This document shows positions 32 through 28,921 of a DNA stretch of 64,000 bases, piece by piece. Position numbers and translations under genes: made by a program. This DNA is from Octopus vulgaris. Lineage: Eukaryota. Within the stretch, counting starts at the first letter, position 1. The number at the start of each line of letters is the position of its first letter. The stretch is from the NCBI GenBank assembly GCA_951406725.2, contig OX597837.1:47492001-47556000 (forward strand), read 5' to 3'. The notes under the pieces were generated by a model. The model was given only the letters and a program-made list of their open reading frames with translations. It ran no database searches and was not told the origin of the DNA.

Positions 32-3000
32 CTGTTGTCGTTGGTTCTTCAGTTGTGACTGTTGTTGTTGGTTCTTCAGTTGTTACTGTTGTTGTTGGTT
101 CTTCAGTTGTGACTGTTGTCGTTGGTGCTGCGCTGCTGCTACTGCTTGGTTGTTCCGTTGTTGTTGTTGTTGTCGGTGGTTGCTCAGTTATTGCATTTGT
201 TGGTCTCACATTTGCTGTTCTTGATTGACCAATTGTTGTTGTTGGTTCTTCAGTTGTGACTGTTGTTGTTGGTCCTTCAGTTGTGACTGTTGTTGTTGGT
301 CCTTCAGTTGTGACTGTCGTTGTTCGTCCTTCAGTTGTGACTGTCGTTGTTGGTTCTTCAGTTATGACTGTTGTTGTTGGTTCTTCAGTTGTGACTGTTG
401 TTGTTGGTTCTTCAGTTGTGACTGTTGTTGTTGGTCCTTCAGTTGTGACTGTTGTTGTTGGTCCTTCAGTTGTGACTGTTGTTGTTGGTTCTTCAGTTGT
501 GGCTGCTGTTGTTAGTTCTTCAGTTGTGACTGTTGTTGGTTCTTCAGTTGTGACTGTTGTTGGTTCTTCAGTTGTGACTGTTGTTGGTTCTTCAGTTGTT
601 ACTGTTGTTGTTGGTCCTTCAGTTGTTACTGTTGTTGTTGGTTCTTCACTTGTGGCTGTTGTTGTTGGTCCTTCAGTTGTGACTGTCGTTGATTCTTCAG
701 TTGTGGCTGCTGTTGTTGATTCTTCAGTTGTGACTGTTGTTGGTTCTTCAGTTGTTACTGTTGTTGTTGGTTCTTCAGTTGTTACTGTTGTTGTTGGTTC
801 TTCAGTTGTGGCTGTTGTTGTTGGTTCTTCAGTTGTGACTGTTGTTGTTGGTTCTTCACTTGTGGCTGTTGTTGTTGGTCCTTCAGCTGTGACTGTCGTT
901 GGTTCTTCAGTTGTGACTGTTGTTGGTTCTTCAGTTGTGACTGTTGTTGTTGGTTCTTCAGTTGTGACTGTTGTTGTTGGTCCCTCAGTTGAAACTGTTG
1001 TTGTTGGTTCTTCAGTTGTTACAGTTGTTGTTGGTTCTTCAGTTGTGGCTGCTGTTGTTGGTTCTTCTATTGTGACTGTTGTTGTTGGTTCTTCAGTTAT
1101 GGCTGTTGTTGTTGGTTCTTCAGTTGTGGCTGTTGTTCTTAGTTCTTCTATTGTGACTGCTGTTGATGATTCTTCAGTTGCGACTGCTGTTGATGATTCT
1201 TCAATTGTAACTGTTGTTGTTGGTTCTTCAGTTGTGACTGTTGTTGTTGGCTCTTCATTTGTGACAGTTGTAGTTGGTTCTTCAGTTGTGACTGTTGTTG
1301 TTGGTTCTTCAGTTGTGACTGTCGTTGTTCGTCCTTCAGTTGTGACTGTCGTTGTTGGTTCTTCAGTTATGACTGTTGTTGTTGGTTCTTCAGTTGTGAC
1401 TGTTGTTGTTGGTTCTTCAGTTGTGACTGTTGTTGTTGGTCCTTCAGTTGTGACTGTTGTTGTTGGTCCTTCAGTTGTGACTGTTGTTGTTGGTTCTTCA
1501 GTTGTGGCTGCTGTTGTTAGTTCTTCAGTTGTGACTGTTGTTGGTTCTTCAGTTGTGACTGTTGTTGGTTCTTCAGTTGTGACTGTTGTTGGTTCTTCAG
1601 TTGTTACTGTTGTTGTTGGTCCTTCAGTTGTTACTGTTGTTGTTGGTTCTTCACTTGTGGCTGTTGTTGTTGGTCCTTCAGTTGTGACTGTCGTTGATTC
1701 TTCAGTTGTGGCTGCTGTTGTTGATTCTTCAGTTGTGACTGTTGTTGGTTCTTCAGTTGTTACTGTTGTTGTTGGTTCTTCAGTTGTTACTGTTGTTGTT
1801 GGTTCTTCAGTTGTGGCTGTTGTTGTTGGTTCTTCAGTTGTGACTGTTGTTGTTGGTTCTTCACTTCTGGCTGTTGTTGTTGGTCCTTCAGCTGTGACTG
1901 TCGTTGGTTCTTCAGTTGTGACTGTTGTTGGTTCTTCAGTTGTGACTGTTGTTGTTGGTTCTTCAGTTGTGACTGTTGTTGTTGGTCCCTCAGTTGAAAC
2001 TGTTGTTGTTGGTTCTTCAGTTGTTACAGTTGTTGTTGGTTCTTCAGTTGTGGCTGCTGTTGTTGGTTCTTCTATTGTGACTGTTGTTGTTGGTTCTTCA
2101 GTTGTGGCTGTTGTTGTTGGTTCTTCAGTTGTGGCTGTTGTTCTTAGTTCTTCTATTGTGACTGCTGTTGATGATTCTTCAGTTGCGACTGCTGTTGATG
2201 ATTCTTCAATTGTAACTGTTGTTGTTGGTTCTTCAGTTGTGACTGTTGTTGTTGGCTCTTCATTTGTGACAGTTGTAGTTGGTTCTTCAGTTGTGACTGT
2301 TGTTGTTGGTTCTTCAGTTGTGACTGCTGTTGTCGGTTCTTCAGTTGTGACTGTTGTTGTTGGCTCTTCAGTTGTGACTGTTGTTGTTGGTTCTTCAGTT
2401 GTAACTGTTGCCGTTGGTTCTTCAGTTGTGACTGTTGTTGGTTCTTCAGTCGTAACAGTTGTTGTTGGTTCTTCAGCTGTGACTGTTGTTGAAGGTTCTT
2501 CAGTTGTGACTGTTGTTGTTGGTTCTTCAGTTGTAACTGTTGTTGTTGGCTCTTCAGTTGTGACTGTTGTTGGTTCTTCAGTTGCGACTGTTGTTGTTGG
2601 TTCTTCAGTTGTAACAGTTGTTGTTGGTTCTTCACTTGTGACTGTTGTTGTTGGTTCTTCAGCTGTGACTGTTGTTGTTGGATCTTCAGTTGAAACTGTT
2701 GTTGTTCGTTCTTCACTTGTGACTGTTGTTGTTGGTTCTTCAGTTGTGACTGTTGTTGTTGGATCTTCAGTTGTAACTGTTGTTGTTGGTTCTTCACTTG
2801 TGACAGTTGTTGTTGGTTCTTTAGCCTTCGGTGTTGTTATTGGTTCTTTAGCCTTTGGTGTTGTTATTGGTTCTTTACCCTTTGGTGTTGTTATTGGTTC
2901 TTTAGCCTTTGGTGTTGTTATTGGTTCTTTAGCCTTTTCTGTTGTTATTGGATCTTTAGCCTTTGGTGTTGTTATTGGATCTTTAGCCTTTGGTGTTGTT

Positions 3001-6000
3001 ATTGGTTCTTTAGCCTTTGGTGTTGTTATTGGTTCTTTAGCCTTTGGTGTTGTTATTGGTTCTTTAGCCTTTGGTGTTGTTATTGGTTCTTTAGACTTTG
3101 GTGTTGTTATTGTTTCTTTAGCCTTTGGTGTTGTTTTTGGTTCTTTAGCCTTTGGTGTTGTTGTTAGTTCTTTAGCCTTTGGTGTTGTTATTGGTTCTTT
3201 AGCCTTTGGTGTTGTTATTGGTTGTTTAGCCTTTGGTGTTGTTATTGGTTCTTTAGCCTTTGGTGTTGTTATTGGTTCTTTAGCCTTTGGTGTTGTTATT
3301 GGTTCTTTAGACTTTGGTGTTGTTATTGGTTCTTTAGCCTTTCGTGTTGTTATTGGTTCTTTAGCCTTTGGTGTTGTTATTGGTTCTTTAGCCTTTGGTG
3401 TTGTTTTTGGTTCTTTAGCCTTTGGTGTTGTTTTTGGTTCTTTAGCCTTTGGTGTTGTTTTTGGTTCTTTAGCCTTTGGTGTTGTTTTTGGTTCTTTAGC
3501 CTTTGGTGTTGTTTTTGGTTCTTTAGCCTTTGGTGTTGTTATTGGTTCTTTAGCCTTTGGTGTTGTTATTGGTTCTTTAGCCTTTGGTGTTGTTATTGGT
3601 TCTTTAGCCTTTGGTGTTGTTTTTGGTTCTTTAGCCTTTGGTGTTGTTATTGCTTCTTTAGCCTTTGGTGTTGTTATTGGTTCTTTAGCCTTTGGTGTTG
3701 TTTTTGGTTCTTTAGCCTTTGGTGTTGTTTTTGGTTCTTTAGCCTTTGGTGTTGTTTTTGGTTCTTTAGCCTTTGGTGTTGTTTTTGGTTCTTTAGCCTT
3801 TGGTGTTGTTTTTGGTTCTTTAGCCTTTGGTGTTGTTTTTGGTTCTTTAGCCTTTGGTGTTGTTTTTGGTTCTTTAGCCTTTGGTGTTGTTTTTGGTTCT
3901 TTAGCCTTTGGTGTTGTTATTGGTTCTTTAGCCTTTGGTGTTGTTTTTGGTTCTTTAGCCTTTGGTGTTGTTTTTGGTTCTTTAGCCTTTGGTGTTGTTT
4001 TTGGTTCTTTAGCCTTTGGTGTTGTTTTTTCTTTTGCCTTGTTCTTTAGCCTTTGGTGTTGTTTTTGGTTCTTTAGCCTTTGGTGTTGTTTTTGGTTCTT
4101 TAGCCTTTGGTGTTGTTTTGGTGTTGTTATTGGTTCTTTAGCCTTTGGTGTTGTTATTGGTTCTTTAGCCTTTGGTGTTGTTTTTGGTTCTTTAGCCTTT
4201 GGTGTTGTTTTTGGTTCTTTAGCCTTTGGTGTTGTTTTTGGTTCTTTAGCCTTGTTGTTTTTGGTTCTTTAGCCTTGGTGTTGTTTTTGGTTCTTTAGCC
4301 TTTGGTGTTGTTATTGGTTCTTTAGCCTTTGGTGTTGTTATTGGTTCTTTAGCCTTTGGTGTTGTTATTGGTTCTTTAGCCTTTGGTGTTGTTTTTGGTT
4401 CTTTAGCCTTTGGTGTTGTTTTTGGTTCTTTAGCCTTTGGTGTTGTTATTGGTTCTTTAGCCTTTGGTGTTGTTTTTTGGTGTTGGTTCTTTAGCCTTTG
4501 GTGTTGTTTTTGGTTCTTTAGCCTTTGGTGTTGTTTTTGGTTCTTTAGCCTTTGGTGTTGTTTTGGTTCTTTAGCCTTTGGTGTTGTTTTTGGTTCTTTA
4601 GCCTTTGGTGTTGTTTTTGGTTCTTTAGCCTTTGGTGTTGTTATTGGTTCTTTAGCCTTTGGTGTTGTTTTTGGTTCTTTAGCCTTTGGTGTTGTTTTTT
4701 TAGCCTTTGGTGTTGTTTTGGTTCTTTAGCCTTTGGTGTTGTTTTTGGTTCTTTAGCCTTTGGTGTTGTTTTGGTTCTTTAGCCTTTGGTGTTGTTTTTG
4801 GTTCTTTAGCCTTTGGTGTTGTTATTGGTTCTTTAGCCTTTGGTGGTGGTTTTGTTTTTTTTGGTTCTTTAGCCTTTGGTGTTGTTTTTGGTTCTTTAGC
4901 CTTTGGTGTTGTTTTTGGTTCTTTAGCCTTTGGTGTTGTTCTTTAGTGTTGTTTTTGGTTCTTTAGCCTTTGGTGTTGTTATTGGTTCTTTAGCCTTTGG
5001 TGTTGTTGTTGGTTCTTTAGCCTTTGGTGTTGTTATTGGTTCTTTAGCCTTTGGTGTTGTTATTGGTTCTTTAGCCTTTGGTGTTGTTTTTGGTTCTTTA
5101 GCCTTTGGTGTTGTTTTTGGTTCTTTAGCCTTTGGTGTTGTTATTGGTTCTTTAGCCTTTGGTGTTGTTTTTGGTTCTTTAGTTTGGTTGGTTCTTTAGC
5201 CTTTGGTGTTGTTATTGGTTCTTTAGCCTTTGGTGTTGTTTTTGGTTCTTTAGCCTTTGGTGTTGTTTTTGGTTCTTTAGCCTTTGGTGTTGTTTTTGGT
5301 TCTTTAGCCTTTGGTGTTGTTTTTGGTTCTTTAGCCTTTGGTGTTGTTTTTGGTTCTTTAGCCTTTGGTGTTGTTTTTGGTTCTTTAGCCTTTGGTGTTG
5401 TTTTTGGTTCTTTAGGCTTTGGTGTTGTTATTGGTTCTTTAGCCTTTGGTGTTGTTTTTGGTTCTTTAGCCTTGGTGTTGTTTTTGGTTCTTTAGCCTTT
5501 GGTGTTGTTTTTGGTTCTTTAGCCTTTGGTGTTGTTTTTGGTTCTTTAGCCTTTGGTGTTGTTTTTGGTTCTTTAGCCTTTGGTGTTGTTTTGGTTCTTT
5601 AGCCTTTGGTGTTGTTATTGGTTCTTTAGCCTTTGGTGTTGTTATTGGTTCTTTAGCCTTTGGTGTTGTTATTGGTTCTTTAGCCTTTGGTGTTGTTTTT
5701 GGTTCTTTAGCCTTTGGTGTTGTTTTTGGTTCTTTAGCCTTTGGTGTTGTTATTGGTTCTTTAGCCTTTGGTGTTGTTTTTGGTTCTTTAGCCTTTGGTG
5801 TTGTTTTTGGTTCTTTAGCCTTTGGTGTTGTTTTTGGTTCTTTAGCCTTTGGTGTTGTTTTTGGTTCTTTAGCCTTTGGTGTTGTTTTTGGTTCTTTAGC
5901 CTTTGGTGTTGTTTTTGGTTCTTTAGCCTTTGGTGTTGTTATTGGTTCTTTAGCCTTTGGTGTTGTTTTTGGTTCTTTAGCCTTTGGTGTTGTTATTGGT

Positions 6001-7994
6001 TCTTTAGCCTTTGGTGTTGTTTTTGGTTCTTTAGCCTTTGGTGTTGTTTTTGGTTCTTTAGCCTTTGGTGTTGTTTTTGGTTCTTTAGCCTTTGGTGTTG
6101 TTTTTGGTTCTTTAGCCTTTGGTGTTGTTTTTGGTTCTTTAGCCTTTGGTGTTGTTATTGGTTCTTTAGCCTTTGGTGTTGTTATTGGTTCTTTAGCCTT
6201 TGGTGTTGTTATTGGTTCTTTAGCCTTTGGTGTTGTTTTTGGTTCTTTAGCCTTTGGTGTTGTTTTTTGGTTCTTTAGCCTTTGGTGTTGTTTTTGGTTC
6301 TTTAGCCTTTGGTGTTGTTATTGGTTCTTTAGCCTTTGGTGTTGTTGGTTCTTTAGCCTTTGGTGTTGTTTTTTGGTTCTTTAGCCTTTGGTGTTGTTTT
6401 TGGTTCTTTAGCCTTTGGTGTTGTTTTTGGTTCTTTAGCCTTTGGTGTTGTTTTTGGTTCTTTAGCCTTTGGTGTTGTTTTTGGTTCTTTAGCCTTTGGT
6501 GTTGTTTTTGGTTCTTTAGCCTTTGGTGTTGTTTTTGGTTCTTTAGCCTTTGGTGTTGTTATTGGTTCTTTAGCCTTTGGTGTTGTTTTTGGTTCTTTAT
6601 CCTTTGGTGTTGTTTTTGGTTCTTTAGCCTTTGGTGTTGTTTTTGGTTCTTTAGCCTTTGGTGTTGTTTTTTGGTTCTTTAGCCTTTGGTGTTGTTTTTA
6701 GTTCTTTAGCCTTTGGTGTTGTTTTTGGTTCTTTAGCCTTTGGTGTTGTTATTGGTTCTTTAGCCTTTGGTGTTGTTTTTGGTTCTTTAGCCTTTGGTGT
6801 TGTTATTGGTTCTTTAGCCTTTGGTGTTGTTTTTGGTTCTTTAGCCTTTGGTGTTGTTTTTGATTCTTTAGCCTTTGGTGTTGTTTTTGGTTCTTTAGCC
6901 TTTGGTGTTGTTTTTGGTTCTTTAGCCTTTGGTGTTGTTATTGGTTCTTTAGCCTTTGGTGTTGTTATTGGTTCTTTAGCCTTTGGTGTGGTGTTATTGG
7001 TTCTTTAGCCTTTGGTGTTGTTATTGGTTCTTTAGACTTGGTGTTGTTGTTGGTTCTTTTGTGCTGTTGTTGTTGGTTCTTTAGCTTGTGTTGTTTTGGT
7101 CTTAGCTTGGTGTTGTTATTGGTTCTTTACTTTGGTGTTGTTATTGGTTCTTTAGTTTGTGTTGTTTTGGTCTTAGTTTTGTTGTTGTTGGTTCTTACTT
7201 TGGTGTTTGTTTTGGTTCTTTAGCCTTTGGTGTTGTTATTGGTTCTTTAGCCTTTGGTGTTGTTATTGGTTCTTTAGCCTTTGGTGTTGTTTTGGTTCTT
7301 TAGCTGTTGTTATTGGTTCTTTAGCCTTTGGTGTTGTTATTGGTTCTTTAGCCTTTGGTGTTGTTTTTGGTTCTTTAGCCTTTGGTGTTGTTATTGGTTC
7401 TTTAGCTTTGGTGTTGTTTTGGTTCTTTAGCCTTTGGTGTTGTTATTGGTTCTTTAGCCTTTGGTGTTGTTATTGGTTCTTTAGCCTTTGGTGTTGTTAT
7501 TGGTTCTTTAGCCTTTGGTGTTGTTATTGGTTCTTTAGCCTTTGGTGTTGTTATTGGTTCTTTAGACTTTGGTGTTGTTATTGGTTCTTTAGCCTTTGGT
7601 GTTGTTTTTGGTTCTTTAGCCTTTGGTGTTGTTATTGGTTCTTTAGCCTTTGGTGTTGTTTTTGGTTCTTTAGCCTTTACTGTTGTTGTTGTTCCTTTGG
7701 TTGTTACTCTTGTTGTTTCTGGTTCCTTGGTTTTTCGTGTTGTTGTAGGTTTTTCAACCTTTGCTGTTGTTGGTACTGTTGTTACTGAAGTTGTTGGTTG
7801 TTCAGTTGTTGCTTCTGTTCCTGTTTGATCTCTGGTTGCTCTCCCTGGTGTTGGCTTGTTTGTCTTTTTTTCTTGTTCTCTTGTTGTTTTTTGTTCACTT
7901 GTTTTTGTGTCTTTTACTCTTGTTGTTCCTAGTGCAGTTGCTTTCGTTGGTCGTGTAGTTGTTGTTCTTGTCTCTCTACTTGAATTGTCTTTTC
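32..7994 (-). CDS. Giant mucin (PTS) exon of a type II transmembrane SEA-domain mucin-like gene; gene continues beyond window start
   Basis: Acceptor tttgttcctattctAG (AG at 7996-7995) and donor GTaagtg (31-30), phase 1 to phase 1. Reads (G)KDNSSRETRTTTTRPTKATALGTTRVKDTKTSEQKTT..., then KEP(K/I)TTPKA repeats (about 7680-2821), then EEPTTTVTT repeats (about 2820-235), a short unique Thr/Ser stretch and 3 more repeats. Indels in about 4030-7420 break the frame and the length (7963) is not a multiple of 3, probably assembly error in T homopolymers. Confidence 0.88.
235..2820 (-). repeat. Coding 27/24-bp tandem repeat, anionic block (EEPTTTVTT)
   Basis: Plus-strand unit ggttcttcagttgtgactgttgttgtt with 24-bp variants. 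Contains a 1005-bp in-frame internal duplication (316 vs 1321). Confidence 0.95.
2821..7680 (-). repeat. Coding 27-bp tandem repeat, cationic block (KEP[K/I]TTPKA)
   Basis: Plus-strand unit ggttctttagcctttggtgttgtt(a/t)tt, about 180 copies. Confidence 0.95.
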
Positions 7995-8349
7995 CTAGAA
8001 TAGGAACAAATTCAGAAACTTAATTGATATATTTTGTGTCTCTACGTTTGTGTTTTTCCCCTATATTTTACTATTCTCCATAATAATTCTACCTTCTGTA
8101 TCTTTGCTCTACGTTAAGGAAGATATTTTATGCACTTTTTGCATTGTATCCCCTTGCTTACCTATACCATGTAGGCGTACTTTGTAGCAGGGACTGTTTC
8201 CAGTTCGTTTTATTTCCATATATACGCATTATATGTGTGTTTGCGTGTGTATGCGTGTTTATGTATGTTTGTGTGTTTGCCTGTGTGTATAGATCGATAA
8301 ATAAATATAGATAGTTATACATTCATTTACGTAGACAAGCAAACACATG

Positions 8350-8362
8350 GATAGATAGTTAA

Positions 8363-8460
<98 letters not shown>
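8350..8460. repeat. (TAGA)n microsatellite
   Basis: Direct reading. Confidence 0.95.
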
Positions 8461-8599
8461 TGACAGACAGTCAGACACGCAGACAGACGGGCAAACAGAG
8501 AGACAGATGTGCTTTCGGAACATGAATGTAATTTTTAAGTTCACCATGCAAAAACGCTACAGAATCTTATGTCATGGCGTCAGAATACTTACTGATAAA

Positions 8600-9105
8600 C
8601 TTGTATGAACCGAGCATCTTTTTCGATTTTCCAGTGGACCACGAGGGCAGGCAATTTAAATGAACCGAGAAGCTCATGATTATCCTCTTTTTCCACAATT
8701 ATGGCATCATGTACATCCATTTTCTTCTCACTGGCGAGACGTTCACCAAAGAGTGATTTGTGTAGCTTTTCAAGACTTTCAGGAAATAACTTCATCGTTC
8801 AAAGCCCGGGCTCTTCCACTCGTTTAGGTGGCAACTACACTAAGACAATGTACTAGTCAACAATTCCAACCTACTAACCAACTTCTTGACAGAGATGAGC
8901 ATCAAAACTTCGCTCAACGTCTACCACGATCGCCAAGCTGAAGGAGGATCTCAGGAGATACGCTTTGAAGGCGTACAAACATGGAAGGCTGTGACAAGTG
9001 TCCTGGATATTTTAACATTGGATTTCTATCGGCTCTTCAGGAATTGGCTGCAGCGCCACAAAGGGTGTATCGAACCTGGTGGGGGGGGCCCTACTTTGCA
9101 ATAGA
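8600..9105 (+). mobile_element. Degenerate mariner-type transposase fragment
   Basis: Interrupted frames KLMIILFFHNYGIMYIHFLLTGETFTKE and FYRLFRNWLQRHKGCIEPGG resemble the mariner catalytic domain and C-terminus. Confidence 0.6.
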
Positions 9106-9621
9106 TTATACTATATGTACTTGTTTGAAATTTATATATGTTAGAAAGTGTTTCAAAACTTCTTTAATGCACCTCGTGTGTATATATATATATATGCATG
9201 CATGTATGTATGTATGTATGTATGTATGTATGTATGTATGTATGTATGTATGTATGTATGTATAGTTGAAATTTACAGAGAGACAAAAGACGAAGACTGG
9301 TGTATGAACTACAAGCATGTGCATTAGTTTGATGCTCGGGAATGTGATCAAGTCTCTTATGTTTCTTCAACAGAAAGTAATAAGAGAAAATAAACAGAGG
9401 GGAATAAAAATAAACTTGGGGATTTAGTGGTCAAGTATGGCGAATGGTTAGAAAAAAAGTTTTGACATGAGTGGTTGAAAGAAGGGGAGATAATAAAGTA
9501 TTGGTGATCTCAAAATGGAGGTGTGCGTGTGTGCGTTTATGTGAGACTGTGTAAGAGTGTGGTTAGGAGCAACTGGCTTTGACGTGTGTGAATGTCTGCG
9601 TGTATAAATGTGTGCCTCTGT

Positions 9622-9675
<54 letters not shown>

Positions 9676-10302
9676 ATGATGTGTGAGTGTGCGGATGATG
9701 ATGTGTGGTATGGTTTCTGGGAAGTGGTCAGTGCTAGTGTGTGTGGAGAGGTGTAGGATGGTGTGATGTGATGTGGTGGTGTGGGATGTGGTGGGGTGTG
9801 GTGAGCTGGAGTGTGTTCAGTGTTTTGTGGGGGGATGTGCGTATGGTGTGGGGGTGCAGATGGGGACGTGGGTGTGGGATGGAAGTATGGGTAGGATTGT
9901 AGGATATATACATATATATATTTATAATTTAAAAATAAGATAAAATCTTCATAAGAATTTATCAAGTAGTTAGCGTGAAAAACCTCATAAGAGAAAAATC
10001 CTTTATTTTAGTAGTTTTGACTTTAAAAGTCCCTCCTAGCGTGTGGCATTTATGTGTAATAATGCCCTCTATATAATATATATATTTATATGTATATGTT
10101 TTTAGGAATTAGAAACCTTAAATACCTTTGCGAGTATTGACCTAATTTAAGAGAGTAGGTAGCAAAAATTGCCTTACTGGCAACGGTAAAACGTTCAAGA
10201 GATGTAGCACTATTTTTTAGCAACGCTAATACCATACAAGAGAATAATTTCGGTTGAGCTTATACTCTATATTCAGATGATATCTGACCAACAGTAAAAT
10301 TA

Positions 10303-10387
10303 GACCCTGATGAAGTTGCACCGATAATTAAAACCAAGATACGCACTTCGCCATGTGCACTGGTGGCAGTGGAAACGTGCGTAGGTC
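10303..10387 (+). ncRNA. Type I hammerhead ribozyme-like motif with long stem II
   Basis: GACC-CTGATGA-(ttgc-acc...ggt-g-gcag imperfect stem II)-GAAA-CGTGCG-TA-GGTC. Stem I GACC/GGTC, near-palindromic stem III, GUA cleavage triplet. Confidence 0.55.
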
Positions 10388-10439
10388 CTGACAAAGAAAC
10401 ATGTGATTACTATTTTCTACTTTGGGGATGAGGAATTAT

Positions 10440-10908: not shown

Positions 10909-11050
10909 AGATGTCTTTAGCTGTATAATATAACTTGGATGTGTAAATCTCTGTTCTTCTGATCATTATTCATATATTATATACGTAACGGCGGTGCTCC
11001 AGCATGGTCACAGTCTCAAGGCAGAAACATATAAAAGAATAAAAGAATAC

Positions 11051-11128
<78 letters not shown>

Positions 11129-12127: not shown

Positions 12128-12282
12128 CTTCCCAAAGTATACAGGACTTCTCCACCAATAATGTCGGAATCTTTTTCAGGCTTTGACTAACAACGTCAGC
12201 ACTTGCTACTTTTTGGATTTCTCTGATCTCCTGTATCTTACTTTCAAATTCTAACTGCGTCTTCGCTAAAATACTGCCTTTT
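12128..12282 (-). CDS. SEA domain exon 3 (contains G/S cleavage-type motif)
   Basis: Acceptor tttttatttccacAG, donor GTaagtt, 155 nt, phase 2 to 1. Encodes (R)KGSILAKTQLEFESKIQEIREIQKVASADVVSQSLKKIPTLLVEKSCILWE(G). Phase matches both neighbours. Confidence 0.9.
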
Positions 12283-13484: not shown

Positions 13485-13555
13485 CGAAGCTCAGTGACCG
13501 AACTACCCGTGTAAAGTAGATTTAGTACGGAGTTTTTCTTTATTGCGTTGTCAAT
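13485..13555 (-). CDS. SEA domain exon 2
   Basis: Acceptor tttatacattctAG, donor GTaagta, 71 nt, phase 0 to 2. Encodes [23 protein letters not shown](R), the SEA helix plus Y-x-G-x-x-V-x-x-L-R strand preceding GS. Confidence 0.88.
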
Positions 13556-16474: not shown

Positions 16475-16800
16475 GTATAAGGAGGTCATTATAGAACCGA
16501 AACATATTCAGATTTATCTCCCATACATTCCTTTACTAATATTGACTCTTTCATTTTCTCTCCACCTAATTATTTTTAGTCACTTCACTCTTACATTTGT
16601 TGTTCGCTGCATTAAATCTGTTTACATTGAGTTACCTATTAAACCATGACACCACCTTATTATTCACAGCTAGCTTCTTAACGCATTGTTATTAGGTTAG
16701 ATATGTTAACCCAGTCTTATCTATTTGGTCTTTGTTACCACCTAATTGTATCTACTTATAGCTCTCCACTTCTTAGTCACGAAATATGTCACCACTATAA

Positions 16801-17185
16801 AGGCGGCGAGCTAGCAGAGTTGTTAGCGCGCCAGGCGAAATGCTTTGCGGTATTTCGTCTGCCGCTACATTCTGAATTCAAATTCCGCCGAAGTCGACTT
16901 TGCCTTTCATCCTTTCGGGGTCGATTACATAAGTACCATTTACGCACTGGGGTCGATATAATCGACTTAATCCGTTTGTCTGTCCTTGTTTGTCCTCTCT
17001 GTATTTAGCCCCTTGTAGGTAGTAAAGAAATAGGTATTTCGTCTGTCTTTACGTTCAGAGTTCAAATTCCGCGAAGGTCGACTCTGCTTTCCATCCTTTC
17101 AGGGTCAATAAATTAAATACCAGTTGCGTACTGGGGTCGATCTAATTGACTGGGCCCCCTCCCCAAAAATTTCAGTAGAGTAGAA
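16801..17185 (+). mobile_element. tRNA-derived SINE family A (dimeric copy)
   Basis: ggcggcgagctagcagag...gttcaaattccgccgaggtcgactttgcctttcatcctttcggggtcgat core present twice. Other copies at about 15885-15990, 23410-23530, 35855-36045, 39832-40040, 45270-45430(-), 57400-57580(-) and 59434-59620. Confidence 0.9.
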
Positions 17186-17464
17186 CAGCCGACTCAATAT
17201 TCCTATAAATAATATGAGATCTGAGCAAACATAGCTGTGTAATTAATAAATTCAGTTCGCAACAATGTGGCTCCGAGGTTCATCAAACAACGCTGAACCT
17301 TGTCAGTGGAATTTAGTATACAGGTTCTTTAGTATACGGGTAGAGGAAAACTATACGGAATCCTTTCGTATGCAAATATGCATTATATATATATATATAT
17401 ATATTGTGTGTGTTATGATTTTCTAAACACACACATAACAAGGTAAATTAGACGCTCATGTCTA

Positions 17465-18036: not shown

Positions 18037-18421
18037 TCTCTATATTATAAATCTGAAATGCGAAAATTTTGTTTGTCTGCTTTTGGCATTGAGAACGGGT
18101 TAAAGGCCTCTAGATCCCGTCGGATTGACACCAAAATTTACAGGGACATGTAAAATGAGGTGAGGATGCCAGTGGGCTACGTTAGAAATCCCTATCTTAA
18201 AAGGTGTCGTTGCTAGGACCAAAAACGCACTTTGACAAGTCTACTCCCATTCTTTAATGTATCTGTCTTCCTCCGTCACTCACTCTATTTCCTCCCTTCC
18301 CATCACTTTCTATATATAACGTCGTTTAACAGCGTCTAACTGCCCTTCACTTTCTCTTTATAACGTCGTCAAACAGCGTTCTATATCTCCCCCTCACCGC
18401 CTTCGACAGCGCTTTCACACA

Positions 18422-18454
<33 letters not shown>

Positions 18455-18549
18455 CGTCTGTCTGTATTCATAGACAGAATTATCATCGCCGCAACCACCA
18501 CACAATCATGAGAACAAATATTATGAATCGGATATTTATTGGGTTAATT

Positions 18550-18604
<55 letters not shown>

Positions 18605-18820
18605 CTATATATAAATATGTATATTAAACTTTTTAATACTTTTTGATAGTTATATATATTTTTTTTTAAATAATAGATATAAATTAATAATTTTGATTTT
18701 AAATTTAAATAATTTAAATTTTTTAATTTTATATTTTATATATTTTGTATATTATATTTTTATTTTTATGTTTCCGTTTATGTTTTTCACTGTTTGATTT
18801 GCCTAATCTCTAATTTAATT

Positions 18821-18887
<67 letters not shown>

Positions 18888-20032
18888 ATACATTTGTATA
18901 TATAATGCGTACACACACACACACATATATATATATAATGCGTATATATATATATATATATATATATAATGTGTGCATTATGTGGTCGGTTGTGCTGAAA
19001 ATATGCACATCTATGTTAAAAGTGCTGGCGAGTTTGCATGGCAACTATTTTTTTCCTCAAATGAAAGGCGTGACCTCTAGGACAAAATTCCTCATCTTAT
19101 AAAATGTGACCCGAGTAGACCCGAATGAAATCGGGTTATATTAACCAAAATGTGAAAAGTGGTCTAAATGGGGCTGGAATGGGATTAAAATTTACAGGAG
19201 CTGGTGTTTAGGAATTCTCTGTTACATGAAGCTAAAAAATTTGCGCCAGCCTTTAAATCTTCAATGTGTTGCCGTCCATGATGAAGAAGTTTTGAATGCT
19301 TGCATTGGTGAGTCTACTGTCGTGAGAAAGAATCACTTCAAAGCTTGGTGTTTAGGAATTTTCTTTTACATCAAGTTCAAAATTTTACTATGTTACTGTC
19401 CGTCGTTAAGAAATGCCAGCCATGGTGACTCTACTATCCTCAGATTCTATCCTTTCAAACTTTGGTTTCCAATATTTTTTAATTTTTATTCAGCTCGCAA
19501 GTTCGTCTGTCCCTTTTAAATGATAGTGTTTTGCTGTCTGCCTTGAAGCAGACCTTTCCGTTGTCACTGCCTGATATTTATGATTGATCTTTCAAACTAC
19601 TTTCTTTCTCAACTTACTCAAGATCTTTTGTTGTTTATAAATGGGAGAGAGATAGATAGAGAAAGATAGAGAGTAAGAGAAAGCGAGGGAGAGTCCGAGA
19701 GAAAGGAAGAGTAAGAGAGTGGGAAAGGGAAAGAGAAAGGAGAGAGAAACAAAGAGGGAGAATCATCATCATCATCTTCATCATCGTTTAACGTCCGTTT
19801 TCTGTGCTAGCACGGGTTGGACGGTTTGACCGGGGTCTGGGAAGCCAGGAGGCTGCACCAGGCTCCAGTCTGATCTGGCAGTGTTTCTACAGCTGGATGC
19901 CCTTCCTAACGCCAACCACTCCGTGATTGTAGTGGGTGCCACGTTCGGATGGTGCTTTTTACGTGCCGAAAGGATGCAACAGAAAATAACAACCACACTC
20001 TTATCCGGCGTAGAGCGGGTCACCTTAAGCTA

Positions 20033-20033
<1 letters not shown>
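18037..20033 (+). mobile_element. Non-autonomous Helitron (~2 kb), full length
   Basis: Starts TCtctatattataa, ends with a GC hairpin plus CTAG|T. Second copy at 60641-62129(-) plus 62385-62608(+). Carries a ~200-bp retroposon-like insert at about 19764-19966 that is absent from the other copy. Confidence 0.85.
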
Positions 20034-20111
<78 letters not shown>

Positions 20112-20483
20112 TACATATACACGTAAGAGTTTGAGTCGTGAATATCATGATTAAAGATTAGAATCCATTATTGTTTAAATACCAAACCCACAATCCCAAA
20201 AGATCAAAATTCAAAACAATATATTTAAAAGAATAAAGCGTTCTTGAAAGATTTATTTACAGTTTAAAATAAATTCATTTGAGAAGGATATTAAAAAAGA
20301 TTTCCTTAAATGTATTCTCGCACATTCCCTTATCTCCCTTTGATTTCACTCAATCCTTTTGTTACACCATTTCTGTTGAGATTCGTCTTTTGTTTCAATC
20401 AATTTTGAAGATTGTCTTTAAGTAACTGCCATCATCAAGTTGGGGCTTTCAAATTCTCTCTCTCTCTCCCTGTCTCTCTCTTC

Positions 20484-20520
<37 letters not shown>

Positions 20521-21449
20521 ATTTTGCTAGCCTTGAGCCAAAATTCAAAATTGCATTGAGGTTTGGAACATAAATTAACATATGATTTTGATAGAAATTT
20601 CTTATTTAGATTAAACTTGAAAATTTTATAATAGAACCAAGGATGATCTCATACGTATTGGTATCAAAAGGGTTAAAAGTGATTTACAAGAATAAGGAGG
20701 ATAAAGATCCCATTGATTTGCTATCGTCCATTTTAACTATGGAAATTATCATCAATAATTTCATATGTTCCTTATCAAATACGACCATTCTTCAAATACT
20801 TTTGTTACTGACTATTTTGTTTTTCCCCTACACATTATGGAATGATGAATAATACGATGTCCAAATATGTTTCTTTGAGTCCATAAATAACGGGAATAAA
20901 TTCTTAAACGTAAATGTAGCCGATACATTTCAGTGTTTCAATCCATACCTCAAAGTGGTAACCAAATGCACGCCACCTTCTTTTTATATAATCTTTATGG
21001 ATTGTTTTGTTTTTATGATTAACTTCAATCTTGACATTCAACAATGGAAGTATTTAAAGGAAAGGGTGTATTGAAACTATTTTATATTTTTGGTTTTGTT
21101 TCTTATTTCCCTCCATAATTAATAGAGATGATCTTAAACCATTTCGTTCGGCGTTTGCAGTTTCGGAGGAAGTACGTAGATAGGTGTTACGCTACGAAAG
21201 AGTGAAATCAAAGGGAGATAAGGGAATGTGCGAGAGTAGCTGGATCCTCTAGAAACACACAAAGGTAATGGCAATGGGGACTGATAATCCCAATTTCTCA
21301 AAAAGGAAACGGTTGAGAACGCATTAAAAATAGAAGTATCTCATTGTTAAGTCTCCTTGAAAAGTCTACACTAGATATCTGGGAAAGAGGTCTAGGATAA
21401 TTATCCTAATTATAATTAACGAACTAAGCTAGCTGAAGAACTGTGTAGC

Positions 21450-22560
21450 CCCTCCTGGGCGCAACACAACCAAACAGAAATACATTTTACGACAGGTCTT
21501 CAAGAAATCTTGGCAGTATTGCCAAGAGGTGTACGCTTGTTTTGTACACCTCGTAAAGGTATATGACTACATAACAGGGGACATACTGTGGTGGGTTTTG
21601 TAGGATTTGGGGATTAATGCTGTGAAGTCCTTATACGAATGCCCAGATATTTCTGTTCGAGTATATGGTGTTAAATGGAAACCTTTCAACGCGTTTGTTA
21701 GGCTTCGCTAGAGGGTGTATTATCCCCGCTTCTTTTAATAATGTTTATGAACTGGGTTGACATGCACAGCCGTTGTGAAAGTGGCATCACAATTGATGGA
21801 GGTAGGATAGGTCGGCTGATATTTGCGGACGACATCGTGCTACTTGGCTTGGCATATGAACTCTAGCATGCACAGAAAGGGTTCGCTGCCGATTGCTGCA
21901 AGGCGAGGAATGAGAATACGTGTTGCAAAGACTGAGACGTCGGTCCTCTCAAGAAATTCTTCCCAGTGCGCTCGGTACGTTAGCGGCACATCACTGAGAC
22001 AAGCGGAGAAATTTAAATATGATCTCCGGATCGTACTTGCGTGTGATGGAAAGCTGGGGGCTAAATTGGATGCTAGAATTTCAGGTGCTGGCACAATAAT
22101 GCGCCAGTTCCAGCATTCGATTCTCTGAAGAGGAGAGTTTGGTTAAAATGCCAAACCTGCTATCTTCAGTTCGCTTTCGGTGCCTCTCCTAATTTGTAGT
22201 CATGCACGTTGGGTAATGATTGAAAAAATATGATCGTGAATTTAAATTGGACGACATGGGGTTCTTCTGAAGGATCTCTGGAATAACATTACTCGACAGG
22301 GTTAGGGGATCGCAGATCAGGGAATCTTTCCAGATCAAACATTGGCTGATCACAGCTCCAGTACTACAGGCAAGTGATTAGAAAGTCGCAGAAAAGAATC
22401 GCAAGACAGAATCAGCAGGAGACGTAGAGGCAGAACCCAAACGAGATGGTTGGATGGTATACGTAGCCTCAGTTGATCATGTTTCGGGAATACATCCGGT
22501 AAGTTTAATGACGGTAGCTTCTGATAGAACACTATGGCGTCTGAGGAGTCCACTCCCACA
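21450..22560 (+). mobile_element. RTE-clade LINE reverse transcriptase relic
   Basis: Interrupted PGRNTT.Q..ILRQVFKKSWQYCQEVYACFV.L.K.YD, GLR.G.VLSPLLL and LIFADDIVL motifs. Confidence 0.85.
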
Positions 22561-22644
22561 ACTTTTGCTTTCTTCTTTCTTTTTTTTTTTGTGTGTCTTT
22601 CCTTACTAATGGTCAGCTATAATAATAATAATAATAATAATAAT

Positions 22645-22850
22645 ATAAAGATTTACTAATCGAAATTGAAAATATGTGGTATCTCAAGATGGTTACAATA
22701 CCAGTGATTCTAGGAGCACTTGGAATGATCAAAAAAGGAACTGAAGATTATTTAAGAATGATCCTTGGTTTACCCTTCATGCAGGAAGTGCAAAAGATTG
22801 TCTTAACTGCTACGTTACACGTATTGAGAAGCGCATCGTCGCTGGGAATG
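22645..22850 (+). mobile_element. R4/Dong-like LINE 3' end after (AAT)n
   Basis: YKDLLIEIENMWYLKMVTIPVILGALGMIKKG...QKIVLTATLHVLR is a restriction-like endonuclease C-terminus. Confidence 0.8.
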
Positions 22851-23064
22851 TTCTTTCCCGTTCCCTCCTTTATTTCCTTTTTCTACATTTTTATTTCTTA
22901 TTTTTTCTCTCTGTCTTTCTTCCCCTTTTTCTCTATCACATGACTTTGTAAATGGACAATTTAGTGTGTTTATTTAATAGCCTACCACTATATACAGTGC
23001 GTTTCTCTGCCCTAGGTGTCAGATAGACACTCAGCAAGAAATGGAAACAGAGTTGAAAGAAGAA

Positions 23065-23130
<66 letters not shown>

Positions 23131-23137
23131 TACCTAC

Positions 23138-23256
23138 CTTTTCAGTAAATTCCCGTTTTTTTTCTATCGTTAGTTTGTTTTCCGGATCTGCATATTCCTG
23201 CTTGTAAGTTTCGTTGAAGTACAGGTCCACATTCATCGTCCTTTTCACTGGATCAA
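23138..23256 (-). CDS. SEA domain exon 1
   Basis: Acceptor ttcttgttttctgtattatAG, donor GTaggta, 119 nt, phase 1 to 0. Encodes (V)DPVKRTMNVDLYFNETYKQEYADPENKLTIEKKREFTEK, which fits a SEA N-terminal strand/loop/helix and has an NET sequon. Confidence 0.88.
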
Positions 23257-23298
23257 CTATAATACAGAAAACAAGAAATTCAGTAGTAGTAGTAGTAA

Positions 23299-23337
<39 letters not shown>

Positions 23338-23560
23338 CAGTAGCAGTAGTAGCAGCAGCAGCAGTAGTAGTAAGTTTCCGGCTTTTTGCGCTCTGACTTC
23401 AAAAGCTGCTGTCAGAAGTTAACATTGCCTTTCGTCCTCTCGAAGTCGATAAATTACCAGTCAAGTACTGAAGCCAAGGATATCGACTAAACCCCTCCAT
23501 GCAAACACTACTGACCTTCTAACAAAATTAGAAACCATTCTTCTTCTTCTTCTTCTGCCT

Positions 23561-23662
<102 letters not shown>

Positions 23663-23749
23663 TAATTCAAGAATGATCTTATTTCCGGTAGAATTAATGT
23701 GGGCAGCGGGTTACTACCTGTAACCTTACATCTGCTCATGATTTCAATA

Positions 23750-25560
23750 AACCTTCCAACGGCTCAAAACACATCTGATGATCTTTACTATTCTTAACAG
23801 GCAAACATTCAGTAGAAACTCTACAGGACATTCCATTCCAATCTCTTTTAACCATTTCCCTAATGCACCAATTCTTGCAGATTCTTATTAGATTTCGGGC
23901 TCTAAATCCCTTACAGATTTCTTGTCCTAAATCCTCGCTATCACAAATTTTAAGGGATTGTATGTTTTTAACTTTTTACTTTCTTTCTTCACATTCCTTA
24001 AACCAAATGGACATGATGGATCAATCGTTAAGCAAATTTGTGTTATATCTGGCTTGTTATGTTCTATCTTATGCGTTTGAATTGGAAAATCCCACAAAAT
24101 CTGGCATTTTTCCGGCTCAAACACTCTTTCAAGCCGATGATCGTCCAAGTACTTCCAACTTCAATTCACCATTTCTGACAAAGCTTCCAGTGTAAAACTT
24201 TTACAACTTGGCCATGCCTTCATTTCTTATATTCTCCTCGGGCTAACTAGCGACATTCTGCAGCAATGTGTTCCATTGTTTCAGCCCAAATTCCACACAC
24301 TCTACATTTTCCCGATTCCTTCTCTCCATACACATATTTTCCCGAGTTTTTAACGGTTCATCTCGAGCTGCTATAACAAGGCTCTCTGTTTCTTTTTTTA
24401 ATTGCCCTTTTTTAACCAAGCCCAGGTTTGTGTTCCACATACGCCCTCAGTGGCTTTCCAAAACTGACCATGCAAAGGGTTCTCTTCGATCTGTCTGACA
24501 TGCTCTCTTTGTATTTCATTCTTGTCCTTTTCTCCTGTTCCACATTTGGTCACTTGTTCTTTATTCATTGCTTTAGTAACTTCGCTTTACTGTTCTATAA
24601 ATAATCTAGCAGGCTGCTTCGTTCCATCTGCACAAACTCTTCTACAGAAATTAAACCTCGTCCACCCTGATCTCTCTCCAAGTACAACAGGTACATATCA
24701 GCTTCCGGGTGGTGGGTTCCATACATTGCCAACAGTTTTCTAGTTTTTTTCTTACCAACTTTCTGTAAGTCGCTTTTTGTTCAATCCACAATTCCAACCC
24801 CAGATCTTGAATTTATCTCTTCAATAACATCTTTTTAAATTTTACCCTCACTGTAATATATTTCCTTCGTCTTGTATACTCCCCTATTTGTAATTTGTTT
24901 CATCTTTTCATGTTTTATTTCATCTGCTTCCAGTATCCCCCAATGTTTATACCACTGTCCTTTCTAAACCGCTTTCATTGTTTTCACATTTGGCATTTCA
25001 ATTGCCTGACTTCCTTCAAATCTTTTCCATTTTCTTATCAATATAGCGAACACTCCATTCCTAAATTCCATCATTTCAGAAAACGTGAACAATATGTCCA
25101 AGACTTTCAAACTGCTTCTCATTTATTGCGTAAAGCCTTAAAATGGAGATTGTTTATCTGACCATATGCTTTTCCCAAGTCCTAAGCTATTTTAACGTCC
25201 CATCGTATCAAACTGAGCTGTGTCATGGCCACTACAAATAGTAATGGAGATAAGCGATCTCCTTGGCATATAACAAGTCTGATGTTCATTTTTCCAAGTT
25301 TTTGTTTTCCTTCGGTCAATTCAATGTTTTATATTTTCCTTGGCCTTTTCTCCACACCTTCTGCCACTCCAAACATGATCATTGTTAAACTTATCCAACT
25401 GGGCGGCACCATATCAGATGCTTATCTGTAGTCCAACCATGCTACCTCAATCCCGTCAATCTGAGTCTAAAATTTCTAACAACTGCTCTTTAGTTGCACT
25501 TGTTCGCAAATGGTTACTTTCCAGATGCTTATACAACTTTTTTCCGCCAAGACAACGCCA
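23750..25560 (-). mobile_element. Degenerate R4/Dong-like LINE (RT to REL endonuclease)
   Basis: Fragments KCQILWDFPIQTHKIEHNKPDI and GQLKKETESLVIAARD, plus RT-region remnants upstream. Confidence 0.8.
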
Positions 25561-26389
25561 AGAAAAGAGGGCGAGAGAAAAAGAGACGTGAGGCAGAGGG
25601 AATGTTATTGTAAAGTTTCCATATGATTAATTGAAGGGAAAGAGATGAGAAAGAAAAAGGAGAGAGAGAAAGAGGATAAGGCAAAGAGTCGGACAGAAAG
25701 AGGGAGAGAGAAAAAGGAGAGAGAGAAAGAGGATAAGGCAAAGAGTCGGACAGAAAGAGGGAGAGAGAAAAAGAGCGTCCATGAAGTGTTGTAGTGTGAA
25801 AGTAATAGTTATTACGTGGTTAAAAAAGTTAGTTGAAGGTAGTAATATAAAGAAAGAGAGAAATATAATTTTAGGTGAGGAGTAATGTTCTGATGGTGAA
25901 AGGTAGAGGGAGAGGAATGAAAGAGAGAGGGGGAGGGAGGTGGTGATGGTGGTAGTGGTGCGTTGATAATGAAAATTTGTTTTTATTTTAATTGAACTAA
26001 GTTTTTTTATATCACCTGTCACATAACGCATGCGCATAAGTCCAATTCTGTGAAATTTTCACGCTTATTTACATGGCAGATATTTGCAATTTAACTAAAG
26101 GTTGTGTCATATGTACAGGATTTTCTTTTTGCTCATGGGAAAAGTAGAGAAATGGGAAAATAAGTGTGAATATTTATTTTATGAGTGCTGTGTATAAAGT
26201 CTATAACATTGTGCATAAAGTATATAAAGTGCATTAAGTAATCATTATATTCCAATTTCCTTCACTTTTCAATGAATAGCTGATGAGTGACTATCTTTTG
26301 ATACAGACACAAGACAGGTTACGCTTTCAGGATTTTGGATAGAGTTTTCAGAAATAACCCAAAAGGTTTATCATTAATTCCGAGAATAT

Positions 26390-28200
26390 TCACGGGTGCC
26401 GCTAGTTATTATTATTAGGCTAGTGCATTCTAATTTAGTTTGGAGGTATTTTATCTTGACGTTTTGTGACAACAAGTTTCCTCAAATCTCAAGAATCTTT
26501 CTTAGAATTCTTGCAAAATATAGAATGGTAATTTTCTGCAAGTCGACAACGCGAGTTTCAATTCCAATCTCTCCCAGTCTTTTAGGTAGCATTTTTGGGT
26601 GCTGTGCCAAGTTCACTAATTACTACTGGAAGAATTGTTGCCTTGGTCCTCCACAGACTCCTCACTTCTCTGCCTAGATTCTGATATTTCTCATTCTTTT
26701 TCAATTGTTATCGAATCTGTTATCACAGGAAATAACAAAACCTATCGTCTTAGCATTGTTTTCTTTATTTTGTGCTCTATAAACGTGTCTGGTCTTCCTG
26801 CCTCAATACCATGGTCGGTTTTTATAACGATGTCCCACAAGATCTTGTAATTCTCATTTTCTATCACAGCCTCTGCTTCATACAACTCTCCTCTTGCTTT
26901 GAAACTCGCCTAACATCCCAATGCGCTCTTTTGCCTACAGAGTTATATCTATACTCCTTATACTCCTTGTGCATCAGTATGCTGCACTCACTCAAAAGGT
27001 GATCGATACTTTCGTCTCCTTTTCTGCACATTCTACATTTACCTGTCTGATTGACTTTTATCGTCCTTTCCCTTTATCAGATTTGCCCTAATGGCATCTT
27101 CCCGAGCGATTATAATTTGCGTCTCGGTTTCTCACTTTTCAAGTCAACCAGACCCAGTGATCTTTACTTCCTCGAGATTCTCGTTTCCTTGCATGAATTG
27201 ATCACGTACTTTAATTTCTTTCTATTTCTTTGTTCTGCTCTTCTTCTTTTACTCTTTGAATTCTCCTACTGTTTCAATCACTTTTTGGTTATCCCTGGCT
27301 GCCGATAGCATTCTTCCTCTACTCTGCAGCACATTATCTTTCAGACCCTCTAATAGTATCTTCTACGTTTAGTAATCCTCTTTTACCTTCCTTTCTTCGT
27401 AGTCGGTCGCTTTTGAATTTAGGATGGAATGCGTTGCGTATTGTCTGCAGCTCTCAAGTTCTTCTATCCAAAGTTCTGCAGCCCGGTCTTTGTCCATTTC
27501 AGGAAAGCAGCAGAATATCTCAATACCGGCATAGTCCACGTATTTAAGGCTTTAACAATGTTCCTTCCGTTTAATATTGTTTCGAGAACCTTCCTAATTC
27601 TCCTCTTGTACACCCTAGTGATTTTCTCTCTCATTTCTCTTTCCAATATCTTATCGTCTCGTAGCACTCCAAAGAATTTATATCCCTCATTACTTCACAA
27701 CGATCTAATGATGTCTTGTAATTTTATGCCATTCGACTTTATCTTCCGGCTTTTCCTCATTATTAGCGCTGCGCACTTACCTACTCCAAACTGCATTCCA
27801 ATGTCCTTATTGAATACTCTCTCTATTTGGATCAGAGACTCCAGGTCGGTCTCATCCATATAAAGTCGGTGATTTATTCCTATGTTGAATATGGTGAACT
27901 CATAGGCAGGCCTGGATATTCTCAATATACTTGTTAGAGAGATTAGCGCAATGATGAAGGGTATCTCCTTGGCAAATGTCCCTGCGTATTTTCACATTGC
28001 CCTGCGATTCACTTGCACATGTCAGTTCTGCCCACACCCTCTGTCCTTTCTCCAAAAGGTTGTTTATCTTCCGATTGACTCCGAGCGTTCTCAGATACTC
28101 CAAGAGCCAGCTTTGTGGCTACAGTTGTAAGCCTTCTTGTAATTTATTCATCCAACAGTTAAATCCTTCTTCCTTACATGTGCTTCATTTGATATTATGC
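26390..28200 (-). mobile_element. Degenerate R4/Dong-like LINE
   Basis: Fragments ICQGD, INHRLYMDE, DIGMQFGVGKCA and LNGRNIVKALNTWTMPVLRYSA. Confidence 0.85.
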
Positions 28201-28241
28201 TTAAGGTGGCGAGCTGGCTGAATCGTCAGCAGGCTAGGCAT

Positions 28242-28384
28242 TTAATTAAACAATGCAAGTATTACATCATTTTTAAAATGTAGAGCAATCTTCAGCTGCA
28301 TATAAATATATAAATTCTATATTTATATGCAGCTGAAGATTGCTCTACATTTTAAAACTGATGTAATCTTTACATTGTTCAATT

Positions 28385-28388
<4 letters not shown>
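28242..28388. repeat. Near-perfect hairpin (inverted repeat)
   Basis: ttttaaaatgtagagcaatcttcagctgcatataaatata / tatatttatatgcagctgaagattgctctacattttaaaa with a 7-nt loop. Confidence 0.92.
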
Positions 28389-28444
<56 letters not shown>

Positions 28445-28528
28445 TGTGTATATGAATGTGTATGTATGTTTATGTACATGTATGTATGTATGTATACACG
28501 CGCGCACATACGTGTGTGTGTGTGTGTA

Positions 28529-28559
<31 letters not shown>

Positions 28560-28641
28560 GCACACATGTACATGTACAGATGTCGAATTGTTTATACACA
28601 TTGCTGTGGAGACATGCTCACACATTTTGCGTCCTACTCAC

Positions 28642-28921
28642 CTGTATCGGATTTTGTTAAAAGAATAATGGTTGTGATTAATCCTGCAGCAAGAGCCAAG
28701 AGAAGCAGAATAATGCCGACAAGGACCAATCGCCATTTCTTTGACCATTTCTGCTTCTGAGGTTCGAACTCCAAACTTTCACGCAGGCTGATATCATCTT
28801 CTCCAATCCAGCTGACAGTTGGGTCATGAAATAAAAACGGCCAAAATGGGGTTATTTTGGGTCGAAACGTTCTGAAAAGTGTGCCCCTTCTTGCAGTATC
28901 TCCAAAATTTATTTCGTCTTC
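28642..28921 (-). CDS. Cytoplasmic tail plus type II signal-anchor transmembrane exon
   Basis: Acceptor tttcctttatatctttttgtAG, donor GTgagta, 280 nt, phase 0 to 1, fully open. Encodes EDEINFGDTARRGTLFRTFRPKITPFWPFLFHDPTVSWIGEDDISLRESLEFEPQKQKWSKKWR-LVLVGIILLLLALAAGLITTIILL-TKSDT. The basic cluster before a 24-aa hydrophobic stretch indicates N-in topology. Confidence 0.9.

Follow-up and report, generated by a model that had tools for sequence, protein, structure and literature searches.

A spliced octopus gene likely to encode a protease-free membrane mucin of predicted type II topology, with repeated SEA breakpoints

Membrane mucins are described in PMC9080433 as proteins of type I layout, which begin with a signal peptide and carry helix and tail at the C-terminus, and force-driven release was described for MUC1 in PMC9564314. 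Mucin-like proteins in which SEA domains alternate with Pro/Thr/Ser-rich (PTS) domains are known in Xenopus, where they are secreted (Lang et al. 2007, as summarised in PMC4948705). The order of tail, signal-anchor and SEA domain is that of type II transmembrane serine proteases (TTSPs). For the octopus locus described here, the initial annotation left two options, an inverted-topology membrane mucin or a TTSP with an expanded stem. The first is supported by an N-terminal helix, the lack of a signal peptide, a SEA domain, and downstream SEA and Thr-rich modules; the second is disfavoured, no LDLa or protease exon having been found downstream of the window gene.

The window is the whole stretch of 64,000 nucleotides of the Octopus vulgaris assembly that was analysed (G000:C24:47,492,001-47,556,000). 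Five minus-strand exons had been chained in it into a "hidden" gene with phases 0-1, 1-0, 0-2, 2-1 and 1-1. All five are present with AG acceptors and GT donors, and their lengths (280, 119, 71, 155 and 7963 nt) match these phases; the first four are stop-free, encode a tail, a hydrophobic helix and a SEA domain, and match named octopus proteins at 90-100%. The gene is real but not entirely hidden, its front part already having an entry as an uncharacterized protein in the annotation of three octopus species: Octopus sinensis XP_029655839.2 (414 aa, here P0004) and Octopus vulgaris CAI9740437.1 (276 aa, here P0005), which both match the window exons, and Octopus bimaculoides XP_014774196.2 (85% identical). 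Homolog searches at near and longer lengths returned P0004 and P0005 alone, or nothing, and a PDB sequence search gave a single match at chance level. The exon beginning at 28921, formerly taken as the first, is a real exon but has no start codon; the ATG lies in 44075-44061, inside the window, and was located by a pattern search from the N-terminus of P0004/P0005, with one match per gene copy. The features are as follows:

44061..44075, minus strand: start exon, coding part (ATG and four codons, 15 nt, phase-0 GT donor)
28642..28921, minus strand: tail and membrane-anchor exon (phase 0-1, residues 6-98, 100% to P0004)
28658..28729, minus strand: predicted signal-anchor helix (residues 70-93)
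23138..23256, minus strand: SEA1 exon a (phase 1-0; splice sites and P0004 match)
13485..13555, minus strand: SEA1 exon b (phase 0-2; contig cover free of variants, at the 19.7 depth of X1 record 1)
12128..12282, minus strand: SEA1 exon c (phase 2-1; X1 record 1, positions 1087-1242)
32..7994, minus strand: first mucin (PTS) exon (7963 nt, phase 1-1; X1 record 1 links it to SEA1 exon c)
2806..7771, minus strand: Lys-rich array with a 27-nt unit repeated about 185 times (net +2 per 9 residues)
32..2805, minus strand: Glu-rich array with a 27-nt unit (net -2 per 9 residues), closed by a phase-1 GT donor

Transcript-like contigs of four runs (X1, X2, X3 and X6), the RNA nature of which is guessed, were mapped to SEA1 exons b and c and to the start of the mucin exon. 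One contig of run X1 (record 1; 1,587 nt, depth 19.7) spans the predicted junction 12128>7994; in it, window positions 12282-12127 occupy positions 1087-1242 and window positions 7993-7790 occupy positions 1243-1446; the 4.1-kb intron is skipped exactly, with a one-base ambiguity at a G. This junction was read from contig coverage and is absent among the joints listed. The 1,086 nt ahead of exon c in the same contig are enough to accommodate the coding exons upstream, which total 485 nt, and 26 of 26 sampled words of the tail and anchor exon occur in run X1, while junctions 28642>23256 and 23138>13555 are taken from the named protein models only. The X3 contig over exon c shows differences at 13521 and 13526, which are the letters of a second gene copy described below; contigs of X2 and X6, which are incapable of showing absence, do not cover the mapped exons. 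We conclude that the window gene is a real, spliced octopus gene.

Intron 1 holds 140 copies of a 27-nt unit (29620-33394, 97% matches), which was considered as a coding exon and not adopted, the named proteins joining the start exon directly to 28921. All three minus frames of this array are open and the plus frames nearly so, with no sign of splicing in; within 564 kb, a 20-mer probe taken from it matches inside that array alone. It adjoins a 4-nt microsatellite of about 540 copies (33516-35683). At the far end, window positions 62606-64000, which we take to be a retroelement-like fragment, are 98% identical to two downstream places. An intronic dispersed repeat at 16800-17200, where contigs of all four runs reach a very high depth, is probably an abundant short repeat element.

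The sole hydrophobic segment (residues 67-96) lies near the protein's N-terminus, and an N-terminal signal peptide is absent: hydropathy peaks at 2.97 in 19-residue windows, those starting within the first 29 residues reaching at most 0.32. Basic residues flank the helix, with 5 Lys/Arg in the 15 residues before it and 3 in the 15 after; from this difference and the lack of a signal peptide we infer an N-in topology. In an AlphaFold2 model of P0004 built from the single sequence (mean pLDDT 40), the helix is the only confident stretch.

The SEA assignment holds for near-identical named proteins, on which Pfam SEA (PF01390) was run: P0004 scores 48.2 bits (E=1.3e-12) in two stretches, the SEA2-type protein P0006 33.1 bits, and SEA1 alone (P0005) 26.3 bits, just below the Pfam cut-off of 26.4; single exons gave no SEA match. 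An Atlas model of the helix and SEA1 matches TTSP SEA regions (TM by query 0.63-0.70 among the first six matches listed), and SEA1 matches an Atlas SEA cluster with a TM of 0.70; Pfam and the Atlas model are the basis of the SEA fold. By sequence layout, the protein thus has the front of a TTSP, i.e. an N-terminal tail, a signal-anchor and a SEA stem. A genome-wide PF01390 search found 3 other loci and missed the window locus, and is therefore insensitive to split SEA exons. In SEA1 exon c, Gly164-Ser165 (12278-12273) is followed by three aliphatic residues, and the same pattern, that of self-cleaving SEA domains, is present in all five downstream modules. It agrees with the self-cleavage motifs defined in PMC2958558, and judging from this motif the SEA domains probably self-cleave at Gly-Ser.

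Offsets beyond the window are counted from its start (genome = 47,492,000 + offset). C-terminal exons had been expected outside the window, and further SEA and Thr-rich modules were indeed found beyond its end. Using tblastn of P0004, of which 24 of 24 genome-wide matches fall in the window locus, the second SEA of the window copy was located in three exons at -11265, -12854 and -13833, and its second PTS exon starts at -14369. A second gene copy, about 95 kb away, has its start at -42567, its anchor and SEA1 exons from -66340 to -81886, and four more SEA+PTS modules to -153455. The one SEA and one stalk first described are the front of a longer predicted chain, with 2 SEA in the window copy and 5 in the second. 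The five downstream SEA exon triplets are open (113+68+128 nt), differ by 3-14 of 309 nt, and have the intron positions and phases of SEA1. Every PTS exon runs from phase 1 to phase 1; the SEA+PTS cassette has phase 1 at both ends, so in-frame duplication is possible. Both copies together hold seven PTS exons (Thr 24-61%), with the long Pro/Thr/Ser-rich tandem repeats of a mucin.

A candidate last exon is found in both copies (-30638 and -155967). It is a hydrophilic phase-1 exon in which 72 Ser/Thr-rich codons precede a stop; it occurs nowhere else in the genome, and in the second copy stands 2.5 kb behind the last PTS donor. In the window copy, the second array is followed by a decayed PTS tract of 4 kb (L005:6570-10000 and L004:1-670, offsets -23430 to -19331), then a GT donor. 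This tract holds 30 in-frame stops in 1,354 codons, so translation of the window copy should end near -19,350. If the indels in the repeats are assembly errors, the estimated products are about 4,600 residues (window copy) and about 11,000 residues (second copy). Near offset -23732 (genome 47,468,270) there is a single-copy Cys-rich candidate exon; it was considered as a C-terminal domain but lies behind the 30 stops, and the scanned frames that overlap it gave no Pfam match. It and the decayed tract may be what is left of an ancestral C-terminus that was longer. A loose cysteine pattern for chitin binding matched antisense repeats only.

Between the two copies, SEA1 exon b has 8 differences in 71 nt and the coding sequence as a whole 21 in 640 nt (15 amino-acid-changing, 6 silent), against 10 in 970 nt for the intron next to exon c; the second copy may be either an unmerged haplotype or a paralog. 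Haplotypes would fit exon b, which shows only the window copy's letters in X1 and only the second copy's in X3, and the word shares, where 1.00 against 0.31-0.35 fits the 0.38 expected from the second copy alone. They would also fit shared flanks that are 97-99.5% identical, P0004 being a mosaic of both copies, and the garbled sequence with which the first PTS exon of the second copy begins. On the other hand, sharing at 90% or more extends over only 20.7 kb of the 54.5 kb of unmasked sequence, and the copies have unlike module numbers and repeat units, which favours paralogs.

Peptides of this family are reported in an arm skin mucus proteome (PMC10138644, Table S1), with at least 4 high-confidence matches, at least 2 peptides and at least 2 spectrum files (q = 0.0002). 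Among the 3,654 rows listed, the mucus peptides map to P0004 or P0006 and come from downstream SEA modules. One of 10 residues fits the SEA2 of the window copy and three modules of the second copy; another, of 14 residues, fits these three modules only and not the window copy's SEA2. Other SEA peptides and a peptide of the candidate last exon are not among the same 3,654 rows. Since downstream SEA peptides are in mucus, at least one form of the gene is translated beyond the first giant PTS exon. As far as the listed rows go, a product is thus present in mucus, as expected of a mucin, at low count.

Taken together, it is likely that the spliced gene encodes a membrane mucin that is protease-free, of predicted type II (N-in) topology and provided with repeated SEA breakpoints. 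The helix would be an uncleaved signal-anchor, with a 69-residue tail inside the cell and, after the single membrane helix, SEA domains alternating with Thr/Pro-rich repeats whose O-glycosylation is likely from their composition. Each SEA would fold and cut its own chain at Gly-Ser, the halves being held non-covalently; the chain would then be a string of linked rods, tied to the cell through these non-covalent halves only. Shear would free the rods piecewise into skin mucus, and the shed part would be C-terminal, the opposite of MUC1. The phase-1-bounded cassette could duplicate freely, as the 2 SEA of the window copy and the 5 of the second suggest. Because the anchor would precede the repeats in synthesis, a stop or frameshift there would do no more than shorten the mucin.

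The first PTS exon has Thr 32%, Pro 17%, Lys 18%, Glu 14% and Ser 1%. The mucin domain of about 2,600 aa in the initial annotation corresponds to a real exon, but not to a single open frame: a frame-following script found 21 frameshifts and 1 stop, all in 7413-4041, about which that annotation was silent. Read literally, the assembly ends the protein at residue 410, and the 7963 nt amount to about 2,650 codons only if the frameshifts are assembly errors. Were they real, the window copy would give a protein of about 410 residues (helix, SEA1 and short stalk) or be decaying, and the long mucin would come from the other copy. This we consider unlikely, even with the literal stop at residue 410, the decayed tract and its 30 in-frame stops behind the second array, and, in the listed part of the mucus data, a copy-specific peptide that fits the second copy. 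All 21 shifts lie within 3.4 kb of a near-perfect array; of the 21 odd units, 11 deviate from 27 nt by two bases at most, and others resemble garbled reads. Unit length is not divisible by 3 in 21 of 129 units of the Lys-rich array from 7700 to 4041, and in none of 41 from 4040 to 2820, and stays divisible by 3 in all 83 measured Glu-rich units. Outside 7413-4041, the other 1,336 codons of the exon are open and 124 of 124 measured units keep frame, the clean array parts varying in length without loss of frame; the SEA2 exons of the window copy are intact. These 21 shifts, and 18 more in the next Lys-rich array, count against the proposed reading. We infer that the frameshifts of the first PTS exon are probably assembly errors in a near-perfect array. 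That the +2 block stands beside the -2 block in the first PTS exon invites the speculation that chains might associate.

Alternatively, the gene could be an enteropeptidase-like TTSP with a giant mucin stem, the LDLa, MAM and trypsin exons lying farther off or unassembled. The locus does seem imperfectly assembled (garbled first PTS exon of the second copy; P0014 not found in the assembly), and the closest octopod relative by helix and SEA is a TTSP-like protein, Argonauta GAB1603854 (TM-SEA-PTS-LDLa-MAM, partial). Its O. vulgaris ortholog on C23 reaches trypsin His/Ser and shares intron positions and phases with the window gene (phases 1-0-2 at equal SEA positions, with a PTS exon after the SEA). 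Sequence adjacent to the window, to which the initial annotation pointed for more exons, yielded the further SEA exons but no LDLa, MAM, CUB or trypsin domain. In a motif scan of 564 kb, of which 400 kb are downstream, the trypsin His, activation and LDLa motifs were all absent, and one Ser-like motif 347 kb away has no protease context; as a control, similar patterns find LDLa repeats and trypsin His/Ser motifs in the C23:28.62-28.76 Mb gene. Pfam, run on 150 of 329 downstream frames with at least 42 unmasked residues (all 84 behind the window copy and the first 66 behind the second), returned one LINE endonuclease only, and the 150 trypsin matches scored, of 245 candidates, include none beyond 33.3 Mb on C24. 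A C-terminal trypsin-like domain with catalytic His and Ser was thus not found within 400 kb of assembly, and both copies have the phase-compatible, stop-bearing exon described above. A protease end is accordingly quite improbable.

That C23 gene (G000:C23:28,619,000-28,757,000, L053-L067) is an enteropeptidase-like TTSP with, in order, an anchor, a SEA, a partial second SEA exon, a PTS exon, LDLa, at least 2 MAM, LDLa repeats and trypsin His/Ser; toward 28.54 Mb there are further LDLa exons and a second trypsin domain. The same genome also holds a conventional type I mucin-like gene (G000:C24:24,138,000-24,152,000, L077-L079), in which a Thr/Ser-rich frame of 1,840 codons runs into the start of a SEA and is followed by a membrane-helix exon. 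An O. sinensis paralog, XP_036368988.1 (TM-PTS-SEA), shares the tail of the window gene (38% identity over 94 residues), which points to a small octopod family. In the present assembly, the O. sinensis paralog P0014 was not found apart from matches to both copies here, nor was the O. bimaculoides SEA protein P0011 genome-wide with the query used; the assembly may lack a family member.

It is highly improbable that the anchor is cleaved or unused and that the product is a secreted SEA/PTS mucin as in frog and fish, which would fit the scraped-mucus peptides, from downstream SEA modules only among the rows listed, and the secreted alternating SEA/PTS proteins summarised in PMC4948705, since the sole hydrophobic segment begins at residue 70 and is preceded by a tail that the paralog conserves, a signal peptide is absent, and shedding accounts equally for the mucus peptides.

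How such a type II mucin arose can be proposed more tentatively. Derivation from an enteropeptidase-like TTSP is plausible in view of the SEA intron positions and phases shared with the C23 gene; but identity is only 29-34%, the cytoplasmic tails fail to align and the SEA introns may be older than either gene, and we rate it at close to even chances. The full scenario, which is possible but leans toward doubtful, is that such a protease lost its protease end and amplified SEA+PTS into a multi-breakpoint chain of 4,000-11,000 residues, giving octopods an inverted membrane mucin independent of that of vertebrates. Module number would vary between alleles or copies, a stop gain would trim the free end with the anchor kept, and stepwise shedding would feed the mucus.

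Compared with known systems, the octopus protein resembles MUC1, MUC3, MUC12, MUC13, MUC16 and MUC17 in its single helix, PTS tandem repeats and SEA with Gly-Ser; unlike in type I mucins, a signal peptide and a C-terminal helix and tail are lacking, the anchor stands at the N-terminus and leaves the C-terminus free, and PTS blocks have 900-3,800 residues each. The salamander MUC1 models XP_078526568 and XP_069506235 have 8 and 13 SEA alternating with PTS linkers, as in the octopus. In the search for relatives, 9 or 10 of 19 matches were alternating SEA/PTS salamander or fish proteins with signal peptides; the fish proteins (P0013, P0015, P0017-P0020, P0022, P0023) alternate SEA and Thr-rich segments and are 22-30% identical to the SEA region of the octopus protein. 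The frog and fish family has a signal-peptide-like N-terminus and no tail before a signal-anchor, several fish matches ending hydrophobic at the C-terminus; the octopus gene shares its alternation of SEA and PTS, but has a predicted N-terminal anchor and no cleavable signal peptide. TPA-induced transmembrane protein (TTMP, C3orf52) forms an Atlas cluster, about 272 residues long, in which 72% of members have SEA and protease families are absent; it is short, without mucin repeats, and with its feature score of 0.86 is a lead only. With the TTSPs (enteropeptidase, matriptase, HAT/DESC), the octopus gene shares the order of tail, signal-anchor and SEA and the Atlas structure, and differs in that LDLa, MAM, CUB and trypsin were not found and in that the SEA+PTS cassette is repeated.

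Neither this gene nor a type II SEA mucin was found described in the literature searched, whose coverage of subscription journals is thin. Proteins that alternate SEA and PTS are already known, secreted or of type I, from frogs, fish and salamanders; the combination of an N-terminal anchor, repeated SEA with giant PTS and a free C-terminus was not found there. The gene is a candidate glycocalyx and mucus component of octopus skin, which annotation pipelines split into short uncharacterized fragments. If the proposed reading is true, the protease side of the SEA family gave rise once more to a tether-and-shed design, which provides a natural test of SEA as a mechanical fuse irrespective of chain direction. 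The octopus protein is predicted to work like a SEA membrane mucin while standing outside both the type I mucins and the TTSPs.
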